34,564 bases of DNA from a virus (lineage: Duplodnaviria; Caudoviricetes), in the IMG/VR virus record IMGVR_UViG_3300045135_000767, positions 1-34,564 of that record; one strand, 5' to 3'. The position numbers and the translations under genes are program-made. The notes under the pieces are model-generated. The model had not been told where the DNA came from and did no database searches. It saw only the letters and a list, made by a program, of their open reading frames with translations. This document shows positions 2,503 to 34,564 of the stretch, in pieces. Position 1 is the first letter of the stretch; each line of letters opens with the position of its first letter.

Positions 2503-2656
2503 TTTTGTGTCCCTCGCATTCCAGTTCTGAATATCGCTCTGCAAAGCCAGCCAAATAGTCTGGGTCATTGTCGAGCGGGTTGGTGTAAAGTTCAGCATCA
2601 ACGTAGCCACACCAGCGCAGCCACTCTGCATATTCAACTTGGGTTAGTTCATCCAT
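2495..2656 (-). CDS. Hypothetical protein (53 aa)
   Basis: MDELTQVEYAEW... with RBS CTGGAGGGACACACT. Confidence 0.7.
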   Translation of the reverse strand: MDELTQVEYAEWLRWCGYVDAELYTNPLDNDPDYLAGFAERYSELECEGHKNA

Positions 2657-2682
2657 AGTGTGTCCCTCCAGATCACAACTCA

Positions 2683-2711
2683 AGATTAATGGTTTACTTA
2701 TACAGTGTCAA
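2683..2711 (-). promoter_or_regulatory. Putative sigma70 promoter TTGACA-N17-TAATCT with A-tract
   Basis: Perfect -35; upstream sequence shared with the promoter at 4890-4917. Confidence 0.6.
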
Positions 2712-2872
2712 ATGTTTTTTTTATGTTTATTAGATTTTCTTTCGCAATCATTACAGTAGTGCTCTACGTCTTTGTGTCGAAATCCGTAAGCCAGGATGAT
2801 TCTGCACCCGTTACAGAGTAGTGCACCAGTACCGCCGTTAAACTTTATCTGTGCGTGCTTGTACTCTTTCAT
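2708..2872 (-). CDS. Small Zn-ribbon protein, 54 aa (not in ORF track)
   Basis: MKEYKHAQIKFNGGTGALLCNGC...YCNDCERK; TGATG coupling with the upstream gene. Confidence 0.75.
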   Translation of the reverse strand: MKEYKHAQIKFNGGTGALLCNGCRIILAYGFRHKDVEHYCNDCERKSNKHKKNI

Positions 2873-3126
2873 CACTCAACCTCTAAATGGAAATCAACAA
2901 ACACTTTCAGTGTTCGCCCATCGTCCTGATACGATAGCCAAACAAACTCGTCTTCTTTGAGATGATTTACATAACTGCGGCCGTGACCATCGATCACTTC
3001 AACACGATTGACCAACTTGCAGTTTGCTTTCCGCTCCATATCACACAATTCTTTGTACCAACCCCAAGCAAGTTTCTCAAGGGTGTCACGGTCACAGTTC
3101 TTGATACTGTTTGGAATGTTCATCAC
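2872..3126 (-). CDS. Hypothetical protein
   Basis: ORF track; VNRVEVIDGHGRSYV...QDDGRTLKVF resembles a recurrent small phage protein. Confidence 0.75.
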   Translation of the reverse strand: MMNIPNSIKNCDRDTLEKLAWGWYKELCDMERKANCKLVNRVEVIDGHGRSYVNHLKEDEFVWLSYQDDGRTLKVFVDFHLEVE

Positions 3127-3130
3127 TCAC

Positions 3131-3511
3131 TCGCTTATTGTGTTGTGCTGTTGTTCGCTTATTGTGTGCAGGCACTCGCTTTCGCTTTATCCTGCGTTAT
3201 CTGCCCTCCTCGAGGTTGGGTAGCTTATGGAACTAACCGTGGGGCTTACAGAGTGGTTCTTCTCGGGCTAGGCGTGCGGGGTGTTGTTTGTAGTAACCCC
3301 GCTTGATGCGCATCACCGTGAATTCTTTAGAATAGACACTCGTCTTTATCGCCGTTATCCATGGTTTGGCAGGGCCTGTCGAGTTCGTCTACGGGATAGC
3401 TACTTCCCTGCGACTGGCTAGGACAATTACCGTTCACGCTTGGGCGAACCACACTGAACGCAACCCTGAGTGCCTATTCTAAAAAATTGGGACTGTCTTT
3501 ACGGCGCAGTC
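3131..3511 (-). ncRNA. Candidate multi-domain structured RNA
   Basis: 21-bp stem 3321-3341/3468-3488 closing a branched domain, at least three more hairpins, and a 13-bp direct repeat; no credible ORF. Confidence 0.55.
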
Positions 3512-3645
3512 ATTCCGTTTAAGTATACTCCAATGTCCAATTTTGGCGATTTTGTGTACACATAGACACCCTCATGTCTAAAAACTGGGACTTTATAAAC
3601 ACTTTAATGCGCCACATAAAGTGTCGCGATTACACTTATCTGCGC

Positions 3646-3867
3646 TTAGTCTTCGATGTAATCCTCAAACATATCTTGCTTCACTGGGTCTATGTAGTCG
3701 GCCTCGAAGTAGCTAACCCGAGGCACCAGGCTAACAGGCGCGACTGCTTCTTCAACCCAACTCGCATAACTAGCGTGCTCGTTATCGGTATATACACCGA
3801 GTATATACTCACTCTGTCCTGTGCTCTTCTGTACCATCTCTACCACGTACATAATGACCTCCGTCAC
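3646..3867 (-). CDS. Hypothetical protein
   Basis: ORF track; overlaps the upstream gene end. Confidence 0.7.
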   Translation of the reverse strand: MTEVIMYVVEMVQKSTGQSEYILGVYTDNEHASYASWVEEAVAPVSLVPRVSYFEADYIDPVKQDMFEDYIED

Positions 3868-4064
3868 TTGTCGTTAGCAAAAACCTCTATGCCAAATTTT
3901 TCATAAACTCTATCAAAGCGTGACACTCTGCCAACGCTCATTGATAGTTTATAACCAATCGTTTTATATGGATACCCCTGATCCCTTAAATTGCGAATCT
4001 GCTTGGCTTGGCTTTTGGTGCAGGTGTGAATCAACACACCCACTTCTGACTCGTCCAGGTTCAT
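3864..4064 (-). CDS. Small HTH-like protein
   Basis: QIRNLRDQGYPYKTIGYKLSMSVGRVSR. Confidence 0.7.
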   Translation of the reverse strand: MNLDESEVGVLIHTCTKSQAKQIRNLRDQGYPYKTIGYKLSMSVGRVSRFDRVYEKFGIEVFANDK

Positions 4065-4219
4065 CAGAATATGCTCCGATAGATCATGCCGTGACGGGCG
4101 CGGTAGATTGTATTCTTATGCACGCCATACTCTTTGGCCTGCTGCTTATCGGTCTTGCCGTAGCGGTTGATGCGAATTGCACGAACCTGGTCGGGCGTTA
4201 GCTTGTAATTTCTCGCCAT
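4064..4219 (-). CDS. Small HTH protein, 51 aa (not in ORF track)
   Basis: MARNYKLTPDQVRAIR...QAKEYGVHKNTIYRARHG; GAGGA RBS; TGATG coupling. Confidence 0.8.
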   Translation of the reverse strand: MARNYKLTPDQVRAIRINRYGKTDKQQAKEYGVHKNTIYRARHGMIYRSIF

Positions 4220-4221
4220 GG

Positions 4222-4443
4222 TTATTCCTCGTGTTCTGAAATAATTTGATTTCGGTAATCTAAAAGCGCCTTTCCCCTTAACATCGAGCTTTGCTTTTTA
4301 TCCTTCTTGCGCTTGGCCCAAATACTTGCGTCCTTCTTTTTGGTGCTGGGCGCTAATGCGTCAAAGCCAAACAGGTCTTTACCAATTAGCTTGTGCCAAA
4401 CATTGATATCCCTCATACGCCTAATTGACCGCATACCTAACAT
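4222..4443 (-). CDS. Hypothetical basic protein
   Basis: ORF track; fills the gap in the early operon; start uncertain. Confidence 0.55.
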   Translation of the reverse strand: MLGMRSIRRMRDINVWHKLIGKDLFGFDALAPSTKKKDASIWAKRKKDKKQSSMLRGKALLDYRNQIISEHEE

Positions 4444-4455
4444 CTAATTGCATGG

Positions 4456-4605
4456 CTACAACCCCAGCCAAGCGCCAGCCAGCCCGATGCCGCCAACAAC
4501 CATAAAGAACACTGCGCCGATTGACCAAAGCGCGTTCTCGATAAACTCGCGGCGTTTGCGGATTCTGATTTGCTCGTATGTTTCTGCCATAGGTTTCTTT
4601 TTCAT
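4456..4605 (-). CDS. Small membrane protein, 49 aa (not in ORF track)
   Basis: MKKKPMAETYEQIRIRKRREFIENALWSIGAVFFMVVGGIGLAGAWLGL*; CTGGAGGGT RBS; C-terminal TM helix. Confidence 0.75.
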   Translation of the reverse strand: MKKKPMAETYEQIRIRKRREFIENALWSIGAVFFMVVGGIGLAGAWLGL

Positions 4606-4630
4606 TGTCGTACCCTCCAGTAAGAGCCGC

Positions 4631-4843
4631 TTACGCGGCCAATTTGTTTTTCATAATTTGTGACATAACCCACTTAGCTTTGTTAATAAACTGGCGGGCT
4701 GTCTCGGTATCTCCGTAAGCCATGACGTGTTGTGCGTCTGACATGATGCCCATTGCAAGCATTTCATAGCTACCAATTGAATCTTCGAGCATCTCGATTA
4801 AGTCAGCCTTGGTGCATCCGTACATTTCGATTTCTTTTTCCAT
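4631..4843 (-). CDS. Hypothetical protein, first gene of the early arm
   Basis: GAGAGGG RBS; ends in hairpin GCCGC-GTAA-GCGGC. Confidence 0.8.
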   Translation of the reverse strand: MEKEIEMYGCTKADLIEMLEDSIGSYEMLAMGIMSDAQHVMAYGDTETARQFINKAKWVMSQIMKNKLAA

Positions 4844-4889
4844 TGTGCTTCCCTCTCAGTTAGTGGCGCTCCCTGCGCCGATGAGTCCA

Positions 4890-4917
4890 ATTATAAGAAT
4901 ACTTTTTAATGTGTCAA
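4890..4917 (-). promoter_or_regulatory. Consensus sigma70 promoter TTGACA-N16-TATAAT (early arm)
   Basis: Perfect hexamers, upstream A-tract, GGCGC/GCGCC hairpin at 4865-4879 in the leader. Confidence 0.8.
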
Positions 4918-4956
4918 ATGTTTTTTATATCTCAATAGATCAATTTGTCATAAGGT

Positions 4957-4985
4957 TTGTGGTTTATATAACTAAGATATAGAAT
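4957..4985 (+). promoter_or_regulatory. Putative late-arm promoter TTGTGG-N17-TAGAAT
   Basis: AT-rich divergence region; partial consensus. Confidence 0.4.
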
Positions 4986-5011
4986 TGGTAGACACAAAGG
5001 AGGGCCATACC

Positions 5012-5167
5012 ATGTCTGACATGCGGCACAAACTCGACAAAGATACACGACAAAGACACTTCCCTGAATACGATGGCGGCAAAGGCTCTAAACCAAGAAA
5101 GAGCACAGTCGAGTCACGCGATAAGTTTAAAGCTAACTACGACCGCATTAATTGGGGTAATAAGTAA
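5012..5167 (+). CDS. Small basic phage protein (51 aa)
   Basis: AGGAGGG RBS before ATG 5012; GGKGSKPR...FKANYDRI. Confidence 0.75.
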   Translation: MSDMRHKLDKDTRQRHFPEYDGGKGSKPRKSTVESRDKFKANYDRINWGNK

Positions 5168-5457
5168 TGGCTGCCAACAATCCAGCCAAGCAAAGGGCAA
5201 TGCGCCAAGAGCAACTCCGAACCTACTTATCAGAGAAATGCCGACTTGAGCATGTCATTGATAACATTATTAAAATGGAAAAGGAGGGGGCATCAATGGA
5301 AAGCAATGAGCTAAATGCTATTAAGTATGCCACTGATGCTAGGCTAAGGCTGATTAACAAGTACCTACCTGAGCTTAAAGCAACCGAGATGACAGGTGAA
5401 GGCGGTGCTGATCTGATCGTATCGGTAATCAAGAAGCGATTCGATGGCAACGATTGA
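5167..5457 (+). CDS. Putative terminase small subunit
   Basis: Immediately upstream of and overlapping TerL; C-terminal KYLPELKATEMTGEGG. Confidence 0.55.
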   Translation: MAANNPAKQRAMRQEQLRTYLSEKCRLEHVIDNIIKMEKEGASMESNELNAIKYATDARLRLINKYLPELKATEMTGEGGADLIVSVIKKRFDGND

Positions 5458-6904
5458 GTACCACTTAAAACCCCAGGGGCAAGTGCTGCAAGAGTTTGCA
5501 GACTGCCGAGAGCGTAACAGCTTTATCATGGGGCCGCTGGGTAGTGGTAAGACAGTCCAGACTATCCTCAAACTTTTTGACCTAATGTGTGAGCAGGCTC
5601 CAGTAAAGAGTGAGCAACATCCTAATCATGGCGTGCGACTCTCTCGAATCATCGCTGCACGTAATACGTATTCAGAGCTATTCAGCACAACCATTAAAGA
5701 CTGGATCGAGATACTTGGCGACCTAGGTGAGTTTAAACAGGGCAACAAGGAACCGCCTACACATCGCCTATCGTTCGGGCTGGACGATGGCACGAGCGTA
5801 AGGTGTGAAGTGATCTTTATTGCGTTCGATAGGCCCGATCACGTCAAGAAAGCACGAGGCATACAGACAACATGGGTATGGCTGAACGAGGCTAAGGAAC
5901 ACTCTAAGGCCGTAGTTGATATGCTTGACCTACGGGCAGGACGATACCCCAGTCCTAAGGAAGGCGCCAGACCTACTCACTATGGCATAGTAGGTGATAG
6001 TAACGCACCCGATGAAGACCATTGGTATTACAAGCTAGCCGAGGAAGAACGGCCTGAAGGCTGGGCTTTTCACAGACAGCCAGGTGGCGTTTTTAAGGAT
6101 GGTGAGACATGGCGTGTTAACCCTGACGCTGAAAATCTGGATAACCTGCCCACTGCTTATTACCACCGAGGTTTGCAGGGTAAGACTGACGACTGGATCA
6201 AGGTTAACCTAGCGAACGAGTATGGCTTTGTATCTAGCGGCAAGCCAGTGCATCCCATGTATGTGGACTCGGTACACTGCCAGCCTATCGACTTCACGCC
6301 TTCACTTGATATCCCGATAATCCTCGGGTTTGACTTCGGGCGTACGCCTGCATGTGCATTCCTACAGCGTACAAGCATGGGTAGGTGGGTTTGCTTCGAT
6401 GAGTTCTGTTTGACGGATAGCGGTGCGGTAGACTTTGCACCACAGCTTAAACGCTATATAGATGCTAACTACCCGAACCATAAGTTCAAGGGCTGGGGCG
6501 ATCCATCGGGCGACAACAAGAACCAGGCTAACGCTGATACGCCTTTTAAGATCATACGTGCCGCTGGTATCCCATGCTCACCGACTAGTACGAACGACCC
6601 TGCGATGCGAAGGGCTGCACTTGAAATACCCATGAAAGAAAACTGCATGGATGGCAAGCCGAGATTCCATGTACTGCCCAAGGCTAGGATGATCCGCAAA
6701 GGTTTACAGGGTGGCTTCTGCTATCGGCGTATACAGGTATCGGGTGACCGCTACACCGATGAGCCAGACAAGAACGAATACTCACACCCCGTAGAAGCTC
6801 TTGAGTACGCGTTACAGGGCGAAGGTGAAGGTAGACAGGCGCTGACTAGGGCGCAGGGCTTTGATCGCCCTACGACTGCGAGGGTGGCGTTCAGTGTCTT
6901 CTGA
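5444..6904 (+). CDS. terL: Terminase large subunit
   Basis: Walker A GPLGSGKT, Walker B WVWLNE, motif III DSNAP, nuclease GFDFG and GDPSG. Confidence 0.95.
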   Translation: MATIEYHLKPQGQVLQEFADCRERNSFIMGPLGSGKTVQTILKLFDLMCEQAPVKSEQHPNHGVRLSRIIAARNTYSELFSTTIKDWIEILGDLGEFKQGNKEPPTHRLSFGLDDGTSVRCEVIFIAFDRPDHVKKARGIQTTWVWLNEAKEHSKAVVDMLDLRAGRYPSPKEGARPTHYGIVGDSNAPDEDHWYYKLAEEERPEGWAFHRQPGGVFKDGETWRVNPDAENLDNLPTAYYHRGLQGKTDDWIKVNLANEYGFVSSGKPVHPMYVDSVHCQPIDFTPSLDIPIILGFDFGRTPACAFLQRTSMGRWVCFDEFCLTDSGAVDFAPQLKRYIDANYPNHKFKGWGDPSGDNKNQANADTPFKIIRAAGIPCSPTSTNDPAMRRAALEIPMKENCMDGKPRFHVLPKARMIRKGLQGGFCYRRIQVSGDRYTDEPDKNEYSHPVEALEYALQGEGEGRQALTRAQGFDRPTTARVAFSVF

Positions 6905-31772: not shown

Positions 31773-32115
31773 ATGCCTGCCCATATTTATGAGTAAAGTA
31801 TTGGCGCATGCGTTCTTTGACTGCGCCTTCTAGCCAACTGATGTCTGTAAGTTCGTCCAGATTTGATCTATCACGTACTGACTTCTTCTGATTGCTTTTA
31901 AACGGCGAAGACCCGCCTCGATCCTGCGCCCTCGCCAGCCAAGAATTGACGAATCGCTTAATCCCCGCTTGAGTCTTTCGCTTCTTGGGATTGGCATCGA
32001 GCCAACTCTCCATCTTCGACAACTCCGCGAAAACGTCAACGGCTGGATAGGTCTTCTGCCATTGTATAATGTCTGCTTCATCTGCTTCCCAGTCCTCTCC
32101 AGTATTTAAAATCAT
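31762..32115 (-). CDS. Replication-protein C-terminal-like domain
   Basis: WQKTYPAVDVFAELSKMESWLDANPKKRKT..GIKRFVNSWLARAQ. Confidence 0.6.
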   Translation of the reverse strand: MILNTGEDWEADEADIIQWQKTYPAVDVFAELSKMESWLDANPKKRKTQAGIKRFVNSWLARAQDRGGSSPFKSNQKKSVRDRSNLDELTDISWLEGAVKERMRQYFTHKYGQAYDA

Positions 32116-32126
32116 CTAGTCACCAC

Positions 32127-32405
32127 TCATAAAAGCCAGTTAATTTTTAGGGTGCGATGAATTTTGATTAAATCTTTAAAGTCGAAATCGCAGTAAGCGC
32201 AATCAATTAGTGAGACTGTAATCCCTTGCTCATCGAATACTTCAGAGATTGAGATTGCTGCAAACCCCTCATCTCCATCGGTATATAAACATGTGCTTTG
32301 GTCTTCGTTGAATCTAAAATCAGCAGATAGTGTTTGAGTCCATAATCTGATTTCATCGTGATCGTTAAACCCAAATTCTTTTGGTGCTAAATTTTCTGCT
32401 TTCAT
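32127..32405 (-). CDS. Copy of 163..441
   Basis: Identical translation. Confidence 0.7.
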   Translation of the reverse strand: MKAENLAPKEFGFNDHDEIRLWTQTLSADFRFNEDQSTCLYTDGDEGFAAISISEVFDEQGITVSLIDCAYCDFDFKDLIKIHRTLKINWLL

Positions 32406-32605
32406 AATTTCCACTCCGCAATTTTTACTTTTTCACCGTAGCGATTAAGGATAGTTTTAAATCCAGTCTGTATGTTATGGCCTTTGCTTCTGAGTTCAGA
32501 TATTCGTGCTGGCGCTTCTAGGATTCCTAGATTATCCCAGGCGTTTAATCGAGTCAGAGTTTTCCCTTCCTTCAAGTATTCTAGGATTCTTTCTTGTTGT
32601 GTCAT
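32402..32605 (-). CDS. Copy of the HTH_39-like protein
   Basis: Identical translation. Confidence 0.8.
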   Translation of the reverse strand: MTQQERILEYLKEGKTLTRLNAWDNLGILEAPARISELRSKGHNIQTGFKTILNRYGEKVKIAEWKL

Positions 32606-32620
32606 AACTCCCTCCAGAGT

Positions 32621-32794
32621 TTAGTGCAATGTACTAACGTCTTTCTGCTGCATGATGATCTCGGTTAACAGGTAACTTAAATCCTCATATTCTAAAGAAG
32701 TGAATAGATCAACACCGTCATCAGTAATTAAGATAGAGACGTAATCAGTGTCTTTGTCTTTCATACCATTAACAATCTTTTCATAAATATCCAT
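32621..32794 (-). CDS. Copy of 657..830
   Basis: Identical sequence. Confidence 0.7.
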   Translation of the reverse strand: MDIYEKIVNGMKDKDTDYVSILITDDGVDLFTSLEYEDLSYLLTEIIMQQKDVSTLH

Positions 32795-32806
32795 CCACAC
32801 TTACCC

Positions 32807-33039
32807 TTTTGATGTCCTATCGGACAACAATAAGTTAATTAGTAATGACGAGCAATGATTACCGTATCGAATCTTGACATCTATTCCCGTTACCTGCTCT
32901 CGGCACTGGGAGGCGCATCATGGAGAGGGTCAACTCCGCTCCGAGGTTCTAGTTCCTCGGCCTAACGCCCGATAATCTCTGCGATTCAATGTTGTAGATA
33001 GGTAGGGTCTTACTTACACTTACTACATCATTGGTCGCA
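32807..33039 (-). ncRNA. Copy of the candidate structured leader 843..1075
   Basis: Identical sequence. Confidence 0.45.
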
Positions 33040-33104
33040 ACCTAATGATACTCCCCCGCACCCCTCCAGTGCAATAGACACCCCCCTTAATTGGGGGGTT
33101 TCTT

Positions 33105-33326
33105 TTAGTTAATAGTGATTTTTAATTCCAATCCTAGTGCTTCGCAGATCTCAGCAAGCCTTGCCAGTTTAATATCGTCGATATTCTTAGCCTTCCGATA
33201 GTTGCTGACTGATTGCTGTGTTACACCTAAACGCTTGGCTAATTCCTTGTTGGTAATCTCTTGCTCAAGCTGTGCAAATCTTATCATCTTGCCAACATCT
33301 ACATCAGAAAGGGATATCATCTTCAA
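33105..33326 (-). CDS. Copy of the XRE/Cro-like regulator
   Basis: Identical translation. Confidence 0.85.
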
Positions 33327-33558
33327 AATCCTCTTGTACCACTTGTTTGGCCTGCTGGATAGCTGGCTGCGCTACTGCGTCTTTAGCCTTGACCGATAGA
33401 GAGAAAAACTTCTTACCCTGTTTACTCTCTTTAACCCAGGCGGATAGGTAGTGGTCAACGCCGTTAACATCTATCGACCCTGTAAAGTCTGGGTGTGTCT
33501 CTTTCTCTTTCTTGTCATTGCGGAATAGTACTCCGCGATTCGTGTTATCGTATTCCAT
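33304..33558 (-). CDS. Copy of the SSB-like protein
   Basis: Identical translation. Confidence 0.75.
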
Positions 33559-33561
33559 GAT

Positions 33562-34197
33562 TTACGCTCCTGTTGCTGTACGGAATTCGGTTGATTTCAT
33601 GGTTGCGCGTTCTTCCGTAGTAAACACACCGCCTTTGCTTGGGGCTTTCCATAACCCAACTTTTTCTTCTTCCGTGAGTTCGTCCCAGGCTTCTTTGGCC
33701 ATGACTAAATCGCCAATCTCAATGCCTGTTTTGATTGCCTCGATGCTATCCGCTAACTGATCGACCAGCTCCGCGTATTCATCCTTAACTGTTGACTGCT
33801 CGCCGTTGCGTAATACTGCTGCCTCTGCGTCATCATCGACCGCAGGAATTCCGAACAAGGCCTGTAAAGCGTACCGTCTTGCGTACGTAATCGCGCTACC
33901 TGCTGCTTGTGGATCGCCCTTAACCATGGGTAAAGTAAACTCATGCTCTAGCCACTGGCCACTGGTGTGCATTAGGCGAGTGACTACACCGATTGAATTA
34001 CCATCGCGGTGCGGTAGCTGCACGTAACTTAAACCGTTATCAAAGCATGGTTGCTTGATTGCCTTGATCACGCTCGTAAGGTCTGCGTAGCTTGATTTGA
34101 AGAAAGGGTTGGCGCTACCCTTAACAGCGCCTCCCATTGCTCCCTGTGCTGCGCATAGCGCCAGCGATAACTTCTCTAGTGATTCACTTGATTTCAT
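33562..34197 (-). CDS. erf: ERF recombinase (allele B, 10 aa differences from allele A)
   Basis: GSAITYARRYALQALFGIPAVDDDAEAA. Confidence 0.92.
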   Translation of the reverse strand: MKSSESLEKLSLALCAAQGAMGGAVKGSANPFFKSSYADLTSVIKAIKQPCFDNGLSYVQLPHRDGNSIGVVTRLMHTSGQWLEHEFTLPMVKGDPQAAGSAITYARRYALQALFGIPAVDDDAEAAVLRNGEQSTVKDEYAELVDQLADSIEAIKTGIEIGDLVMAKEAWDELTEEEKVGLWKAPSKGGVFTTEERATMKSTEFRTATGA

Positions 34198-34466
34198 AAC
34201 TTACCCTCCATTGCTTTAAGTACTGCGCCGCTAAATGCATCTAGCAGTGCATCGAACGCCTTGTCTGAATCGTTAGACTCCCAGGCATATAAGATCTTGT
34301 CTAAATAGTCATCCATGTTAGCCACATACTCACCAACAACAATTTCCGCTAATAGCGTTTTGTTCTCGCGTGCCATGTCCAATATGCGCATTTCTGCGCA
34401 CTCTGGGCAGACAGTGTGGTTAGTGATTAAAAGTTCCTTACCGCAGTAATGGCAGTCTTCATGCAT
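34194..34466 (-). CDS. Allele B of the Zn-ribbon protein 2230..2502
   Basis: Same frame; NHMSC becomes NHTVC, DAILD becomes DALLD. Confidence 0.8.
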   Translation of the reverse strand: MHEDCHYCGKELLITNHTVCPECAEMRILDMARENKTLLAEIVVGEYVANMDDYLDKILYAWESNDSDKAFDALLDAFSGAVLKAMEGKL

Positions 34467-34564
34467 TTTTGTGTCCCTCGCATTCCAGTTCAGCGTATCG
34501 CTCATCAAAGCCAGCCAAGTAGTCTGGGTCATTGTCGAGCGGGTTGGTGTAAAGTTCAGCATCA

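Follow-up and report, generated by a model that had tools for sequence, protein, structure and literature searches.

A mobile four-module cassette of non-coding RNAs in a phage genome, with a covarying new RNA in an RNase III-type carrier stem and an orphan permuted abiF motif

Anti-defence factors made of RNA are known from few cases, such as pseudo-ToxI and viral guide-RNA mimics. Among the described systems closest to the locus analysed here, the abiF RNA (RF03085; RCd22 of C. difficile, AbiFr) is the antitoxin of the Abi_2/AbiF HEPN toxins, a toxin family that the available parts of a review and of 10.1101/2025.04.15.648962 tie to the origin of Cas13. The available text of the latter further reports that an RNA with the abiF motif neutralizes AbiF in cis and in trans, that helix-breaking mutations abolish this neutralization whereas compensatory ones do not, and that the AbiF homodimer binds two RNAs. 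According to PMC3475682, pseudo-ToxI of phage PhiTE is a non-coding RNA that resembles a type III antitoxin, comes without the toxin and consists of a tandem repeat of one mimic directed against ToxN. The rnaC and rnaD RNAs of T4 (species 1 and 2 stable RNAs) are structured, 120–140 nt long and located in the phage tRNA region, where they adjoin tRNA-Arg; PMC9697503 lists them as RNAs without a known function. GOLLD, ROOL and OLE are each one large RNA that assembles into dimers or cages, with palindromic loops that covary as palindromes and kiss between molecules, and GOLLD and ROOL lie near phage tRNAs (10.1101/2024.12.08.627333, available sections). DUF3800-associated RNA motifs are described in the accessible text of Weinberg et al. 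2017 (PMC5737381), and the non-coding RNA arrays of UG27 reverse transcriptase (RT) are prophage arrays of structured RNAs that gain and lose units (10.64898/2026.09.22.753630, in the part available).

The cassette described here resembles each of these systems in some features and departs from it in others. Its module B shares with abiF RNA both halves, the helix/bulge/helix geometry and the flanks of the bacterial copies, but carries the halves swapped on a new basal helix, has no toxin gene and is accompanied by unrelated RNAs; the resemblance to abiF does not extend to the other modules, A, C and PK. In contrast to the repeated single mimic of pseudo-ToxI, it is a row of different folds, one permuted and one closed by a carrier stem, and concerns another toxin family. 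The T4 RNAs are unmatched by our models of module A, no long carrier stem was seen in their sequence, and their setting differs, as no tRNA genes were found in the phage studied here. Compared with GOLLD, ROOL and OLE, the units of the cassette are small (30–150 nt), interchangeable and unmatched in Rfam, and unlike the UG27 arrays, in which a single fold is repeated next to an RT operon, they have unrelated folds; no RT was matched among 56 ORFs scanned against PHROGs or 23 scanned against Pfam.

The window, that is, the whole stretch of DNA analysed, is a 34.6-kb virus record (34,564 nucleotides) containing a repeat whose copies lie 31,964 bases apart. Its genes include those for a podovirus-type head-tail adaptor, a major head protein, tail proteins, Erf, SSB, a NinG-like nuclease and an endolysin. 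The nearest portals of isolated phages, from Methylophilales, Pelagibacter and Vibrio phages, are 28–33% identical, and the host is presumably a proteobacterium. The two copies of the terminal overlap (1–2600 and 31965–34564) differ at 109 of 2600 positions, from 1739 (in the Erf gene) onward, and the record may be a join of two strains. A 486-aa ORF at 5444–6904, ahead of the portal in the place expected for the large terminase, has no PHROG or Pfam match. The cassette itself occupies a 519-base gap separating two leftward early genes of unknown function, the upstream one at 3646..3867 and the downstream one, phrog_10600, at 2872..3126 (both minus strand); the latter is also found in relatives that lack the cassette. 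The initial annotation of this DNA had seen no credible gene, tRNA or known ribozyme in the gap, and our searches agree: minus-strand ORFs inside it reach at most 41 aa, none of its three overlapping plus-strand ORFs (71–114 aa) has a PHROG match, and ARAGORN and Rfam give no tRNA, tmRNA, Y RNA, known ribozyme or GOLLD/ROOL match. Run over the window, Rfam assigned no family, its single match being a chance one at E 3.7.

The same annotation had proposed one large structured RNA. Instead, the 380-nt span consists of four independent minus-strand modules, named PK, A, B and C in their order along the strand, and it is virtually certain that their structures are real. All three hairpins that had been noted as flanking a central domain exist, but they are parts of other modules: GACUG/CAGUC is a stem of PK, GCGGGG/CCCCGC is the outer helix of a permuted abiF motif and GCAGG/CCUGC is a stem of module C. 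The order PK-A-B-C of the window is replaced by PK-B-C-A in L012 and L167 and by B-C-A-PK in L024, A occurs alone in L069, L155 and L158, and PK occurs alone in L001, L021 and L027. The flanking genes of the window recur in L001 with only PK between them, L002, a close relative with the same downstream gene, has no module at all, and the cassette is nearly identical in L005–L007 despite differing flanking genes. In blastn searches of isolate phages and plasmids with the region or its homologs, no real match was found for A, B or C. RNA-library runs X1–X4 contain 5–10% of the words; contigs of relatives from run X1 match segments of PK, the carrier, B and C, without strand, ends or level, and in one of their joints A is skipped while in another the cargo is replaced. 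These contigs agree with modularity and are not proof of transcription. The feature is a mobile four-module cassette of non-coding RNAs: a covarying new RNA sits in an RNase III-type carrier, and an abiF motif is present in orphan, permuted form.

A perfect sigma-70 consensus promoter (4890..4917, minus strand, 12/12 match) precedes the leftward early genes, with the cassette downstream on the same strand; its function is putative, because four sites were observed in comparison with 4.9 expected in shuffles. Directly upstream of the cassette lies a candidate local sigma-70 promoter (3522..3549, minus strand, 9/12 match), whose two hexamers recur in L009, L012 and L195 at another spacing. A 27-nt repeat (2698–2724 and 4904–4930), with 85% identity between its copies, overlaps the −35 box of the perfect-consensus promoter; the second copy may mark a further early promoter or an operator. 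Between the cassette and the next gene is an A/C-rich tail (3131..3167, minus strand) that contains a 13-nt direct repeat (3131–3143 and 3155–3167) and is kept in L001, L005 and L027; no terminator-like site was called from the cassette to that gene. The position within the early operon, the missing terminator-like site, the RNase III-type stem and the pseudoknot at the predicted 5′ end would all suit a role in cis, in which an RNase III site and protective folds process, stabilize or antiterminate the downstream mRNA. Such a role is nevertheless improbable, as close relatives keep the downstream gene with PK only or with no module, and as it would leave the abiF motif and the palindromic loops of the cassette unexplained. 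Because the modules are reordered, missing in relatives with the same gene and placed between tRNA genes in larger phages, we also disfavour the antitermination RNA that had been considered initially.

Module A, the stem-enclosed domain (core 3342..3467, minus strand), is built of a three-way junction of P1, P2 and P3/P4, followed by hairpin P5 and an A-rich linker. Scanning viral and metagenome contigs for the pattern yielded, with chance rows removed ahead of counting (3/9, 5/16 and 6/18), 19 distinct cores; one of the scans returned 122 loci, most of which were dropped for want of a partner arm. In an alignment of 17 homologs, 98% of the cells are paired and 25 of the 47 pairs have double changes, although these counts overstate the number of independent events, because the homologs are related. 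No shuffle out of 500 reached as much covariation, and control structures slid along the alignment were 26–46% paired. The five inner helices first noted in this domain (AGGGUU/GGCCCU, CGUUCA/UGAACG, UGUC/GACA, GGGA/UCCC and GCC/GGC) all appear in the minimum-energy fold, the GCC/GGC hairpin showing no double-sided change, and the junction core is invariant. Neither the enclosed domain alone (z +0.57) nor the predicted 150-nt product (z −0.94) is unusually stable, so homologs were needed, and the support comes from covariation and not from energy. These sequence comparisons make module A a new RNA family with a covarying structure, matched by no family in Rfam.

In bacteria, the searches for A covered samples (151 and 401 genomes; 58 DUF3800 loci) or used exact patterns. 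The exact-pattern scan of 185,579 genomes gave no real match, its single match (L169) being judged chance, and none was found in the 58 DUF3800 loci. A chance match was likewise the only one returned by the A-core model over the 151 genomes (L213, 23.8 bits), which is AT-rich, leaves several helices unpaired and overlaps the start of a histidine-kinase ORF; the two matches in the 401 genomes (L214 and L215) equal the control rate, with two in controls. Inspection by eye suggested that the P3 internal loop might form a pseudoknot with L5, a pairing that fails in L155, L157 and L165 and was set aside. Rfam gave no support for a relation of A or PK to group I introns, RNase P, 5S RNA, Y RNA or small ribozymes, and this idea was dropped. 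At L168:2150-2655, two divergent copies of A stand in a single array within different carrier stems, which suggests variants for different targets.

The stem around module A, formed by 3488–3468 with 3341–3321, had been described as fully paired over 21 bp on the minus strand, and indeed it has 19 Watson–Crick and 2 G–U pairs; it tops the list of 48 inverted repeats within 2600–5500. Relative to dinucleotide shuffles, the stem-closed segment 3321–3488 folds with a z-score of −3.96 on the minus strand and −3.03 on the plus strand, and the whole gap (3127–3645) with −2.93 and −0.85, respectively. RNase III is predicted to cut the 5′ arm (3468..3488, minus strand) at 3479/3478 and the 3′ arm (3321..3341, minus strand) at 3329/3328, giving a 150-nt RNA (3478–3329) with a 2-nt 3′ overhang. 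The window arm matches 7 of the 8 specified positions of the published RNase III half-site, which in the available text of PMC4357697 is the weak E. coli consensus. At least 6 of the 8 positions are matched in one register by 15 of 17 distinct carrier arms of A (mean 6.24 in that register versus 2.1–3.7 in others), a level reached by 2.1% of genome 12-mers, and the arms of L069 and L175 miss the half-site at that register. Across the 17 distinct homolog arms the carrier is 14–23 bp long.

At least eight unrelated cargos, 40–145 nt long and sorted into families by eye, are closed by nearly this stem in L024, L043, L053, L069–L071, L074, L114 and L141, and module A is conversely closed by stems of very different sequence in L155, L158, L165, L168 and L175. 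The long stem is a generic, reusable carrier common to unrelated cargos. Of the initially proposed RNase III-type site freeing about 130–170 nt, the long consensus-fitting stem and a product of about 150 nt stand, with cleavage as a prediction, and release of module A by RNase III is in our judgement quite probable. A symmetric RNase III site made of two adjacent stems was rejected: out of 22 rows, among which 4 are reverse-strand readings, only 6 show it, and it is absent in the window. The units could also be separated by a new self-cleaving or self-ligating ribozyme in at least one module, most plausibly C or A, and the compact pseudoknot of C with its nearly invariant joining strands and the invariant junction core of A would fit this explanation. 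We consider it very improbable, since Rfam gives no ribozyme match, the RNase III signature of the carrier makes self-cleavage needless for A, and the DUF3800-I RNA is reported in the accessible text of PMC5737381 to be without self-cleavage.

Module B (3260..3322, minus strand) is a circularly permuted abiF motif on a basal helix, as indicated by a profile scan, its fold and covariation. In two related phage loci, Rfam scores an unpermuted abiF RNA over its cut-off, with 45.4 bits for L074 and 55.1 bits for L166, and these RNAs resembled module B with its halves swapped. In a sample of 151 bacterial genomes of the class of G001, 8 had an abiF match, with 6 places over the cut-off; of five ORFs scanned downstream of these places, four were Abi_2 and one an HTH protein, and no ORF of at least 120 aa lay directly behind the sixth. 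Profiles of the 5′ and 3′ halves were built from the six bacterial RNAs, and for each of them module B is the top-scoring of about 63,900 genome sites, with the 3′ half (3314–3294) standing first and the 5′ half (3281–3270) following 12 nt apart on the minus strand. The joint score in this permuted order is 34.4, compared with 17.2 ± 2.1 (maximum 22.0) in 20 shuffled genomes, whereas the native order scores at most 15.5 in the genome. The free-energy fold shows the same geometry: an outer helix, a bulged A opposite a 6-nt bulge and a 3-bp inner helix, in permuted order, with the loop that links the abiF halves in bacteria replaced. The inner helix is paired in all 14 homologs, as GCG/CGC, GCU/AGC or GCC/GGC (GC in 8, UA in 5 and CG in 1), the bulged A is kept in 13 of 14, and 6 of 14 pairs covary. 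RF03085 does not match window B at the gathering threshold or at E ≤ 10; Rfam thus leaves it unscored, and its link to abiF comes from the profile scan of this analysis.

A six-frame search of the window phage gave no match to an Abi_2 or DUF3800 gene, the Abi_2 search control being positive in 3 of 14 genomes, and no Abi_2 was found in the records of L074 and L114, which are 29% and 15% complete. With no toxin gene adjacent and a non-native order, B stands outside the AbiF system, as an orphan mimic. Because abiF RNA neutralizes in trans and no toxin gene was found in this phage, the orphan copy is best read as a decoy, comparable to pseudo-ToxI. The decoy or antitoxin RNA that the initial annotation had suspected is accordingly represented in part: an abiF antitoxin motif is present, but in B, which had been listed only as a hairpin, and not in the stem-enclosed domain A. 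Elsewhere, the DUF3800 gene of L209 has two abiF-like motifs with long loops ahead of it (L209:1146-1298), and one abiF motif precedes a non-Abi_2 HTH gene at L207:1501-1537. As abiF motifs also stand ahead of HTH and DUF3800 genes, the target of B is not fixed; on the motif that it carries, B probably binds a protein of AbiF or DUF3800 type. Our literature search, largely outside subscription papers, returned no orphan or permuted abiF RNAs in phages and no arrays of carrier-stem RNAs.

Self-complementary loops are a further property of the modules. In A, the terminal loop of arm 2 contains a self-complementary hexamer (3397..3402, minus strand), with a palindrome of at least 4 nt in 17 of 19 cores, and loop L5 contains another (3359..3364, minus strand), a predicted kissing loop present in 19 of 19 cores. 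The L5 hexamer is CCUAGG in 17 cores, CCAUGG in 1 and ACUAGU in 1; both departures from the common version are double changes that preserve the palindrome, as do 9 of the 135 possible double changes. The hairpin of module C is palindromic in 14 of 14. Such palindromic loops are unable to pair within one strand, and the available sections of 10.1101/2024.12.08.627333 report that palindrome-preserving changes revealed the loops of OLE and GOLLD that kiss between molecules. Because these loops keep their palindromes through double changes, A and C are likely to form kissing dimers. The same double changes, which keep pairing and palindromes in the L5 hexamer and the inner abiF helix, argue against the cassette being a decaying, functionless relic of a tRNA-region array from a larger phage, as does its near identity in L005–L007 with differing flanking genes. 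Its absence or partial presence in the close relatives L001, L002 and L027 and the loss of the terminal hairpin sequence in window C would agree with decay, which we regard as scarcely credible.

Module C (3168..3255, minus strand) is a compact pseudoknotted RNA in which 3255–3251 pair with 3177–3173 and 3195–3191 pair with 3172–3168, with its palindromic hairpin at 3215–3208. Among 12 homologs, 14 of 24 pairs are double-changed, the pseudoknot helix being fully swapped in one sequence only (L074a), and the unpaired joining strands are nearly invariant. In L114, the terminal hairpin of C shares 20–21 identical nt with the hairpin of a bacterial RNA beside DUF3800 genes (L223) and with one in L210, and a strict descriptor of the C hairpin matched 4 of 58 DUF3800 loci as against 0 of 58 reversed ones. 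Window C differs in carrying a GNRA hairpin there, the shared 19–21-nt hairpin being lost, and the whole C model against L223 is not significant (E 0.24); the link between C and DUF3800 is a lead, not a result. The DUF3800-side RNA, conserved in bacteria at L223:1270-1340 and in L227, L228, L231, L251 and L210, is an observation in its own right: it consists of a purine-rich strand, a 7-bp hairpin, a short helix strand and a terminator, and differs from the published DUF3800-associated motifs in that it has no Rfam match, the DUF3800 families included, in the four of its loci scanned (E ≤ 0.5).

Module PK (3491..3518, minus strand; 12 distinct versions) is a covarying two-stem pseudoknot with 28–38 nt between the outer pairs. 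Stem 1 pairs 3518–3515 with 3504–3501 and stem 2 pairs 3511–3507 with 3495–3491; ACGG/CCGU of stem 1 changes to UCGG/CCGA in L012 and to AAGG/CCUU in L160 and L168. The H-type pseudoknot of type III antitoxins is about 35–45 nt long, and PK has the H-type pseudoknot that characterizes the ToxI, CptI and TenpI antitoxins of this type. It is present as a single copy without tandem repeats and has no Rfam match to a known antitoxin repeat. PK was found neither in 401 bacterial genomes nor beside DUF3800 genes (58 loci), and a 9-nt PK word near DUF3800 genes (4 versus 1 in the control) was discarded as too weak.

In larger phages these RNAs belong to tRNA regions: a tRNA gene lies in the fetched locus of 13 of the 19 A cores, and the tRNA-side loci are often long arrays of more unannotated stem-closed RNAs. 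This setting is shared with stable phage RNAs of the T4 rnaC/rnaD or GOLLD/ROOL kind, which would serve kissing assembly or host translation or RNA metabolism, the abiF motif then being a captured brick. The position of T4 rnaC and rnaD beside tRNA-Arg, the palindromic loops like those of OLE and GOLLD and the want of a bacterial partner for A and PK in our searches point in the same direction. However, B keeps the bulged A and the paired inner helix, permuted and unpermuted abiF RNAs both recur in these phages, units of 30–150 nt are far smaller than GOLLD and ROOL, and the A core model scores only 11 bits on the T4 tRNA region, outside rnaC and rnaD, so that we hold this explanation to be unlikely.

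The arrays offer several further observations. In L071, L043, L053, L157, L158 and L160, a short ORF, a strong hairpin and a T-run, noted by eye, precede the RNA/tRNA arrays and are like a translation-coupled attenuator. The first unit after the promoter in L071, L043 and L053 is conserved and has a G-rich word, which we take to resemble the complement of part of the type I-E CRISPR repeat. Array cargos of L158, L160, L157, L165, L183 and L114 have, by eye, one or two tRNA-like T-arms and no anticodon arm, like mimics of the tRNA elbow. An array module at L024:904-947 is common to 15 Vibrio phage records (84–94% over 31–44 nt), including L170 and L171; in the two copies inspected it is near tRNA genes, and these phages offer cultured hosts.

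We lean moderately towards reading the four-module row as a set of RNA decoys, made early in infection, against RNA-regulated abortive-infection toxins of the host. The minus strand would be transcribed from the early and local sigma-70-type promoters, and host RNase III would cut the 21-bp carrier, as predicted from its match to the consensus, freeing A as the 150-nt RNA 3478–3329 and splitting PK from B and C. Module B would then present the abiF surface shown by its sequence and covariation, namely a helix, a bulged A plus 6-nt bulge and a 3-bp helix, and, by analogy with published abiF RNAs, could bind an AbiF-type HEPN nuclease in trans. The self-complementary loops would join two RNA molecules, an arrangement that would fit targets with two-fold symmetry, for example the AbiF homodimer. 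Module A would most likely be a further decoy in this scheme; taken by itself, its assignment as a defence decoy is tentative and is suggested by its company. A decoy of the retron/DRT non-coding RNA kind is possible for A, in that a terminal inverted repeat encloses a structured RNA, but the carrier also encloses unrelated cargos. More speculatively, the small RNAs of phage tRNA regions might form a modular anti-defence arsenal of RNase III-released cartridges, each a dimer-forming mimic of the RNA that partners one family of host toxins. On this doubtful but conceivable extension, the partners could be AbiF for B, DUF3800 for C and an undiscovered RNA-regulated defence protein for A, and the units might be traded between unrelated phages like anti-CRISPR genes.

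In summary, if the permuted orphan abiF RNA is a decoy, it represents a phage counter-measure against AbiF, and the cassette bears on the old question of what role stable small RNAs have in phage tRNA regions. The carrier stem provides a handle by which many more such RNAs can be sought; module A, as a new RNA family on comparative sequence evidence, is an RNA whose partner can be fished directly. If the arsenal reading were true, each cargo would point to a host defence system and to its RNA ligand.
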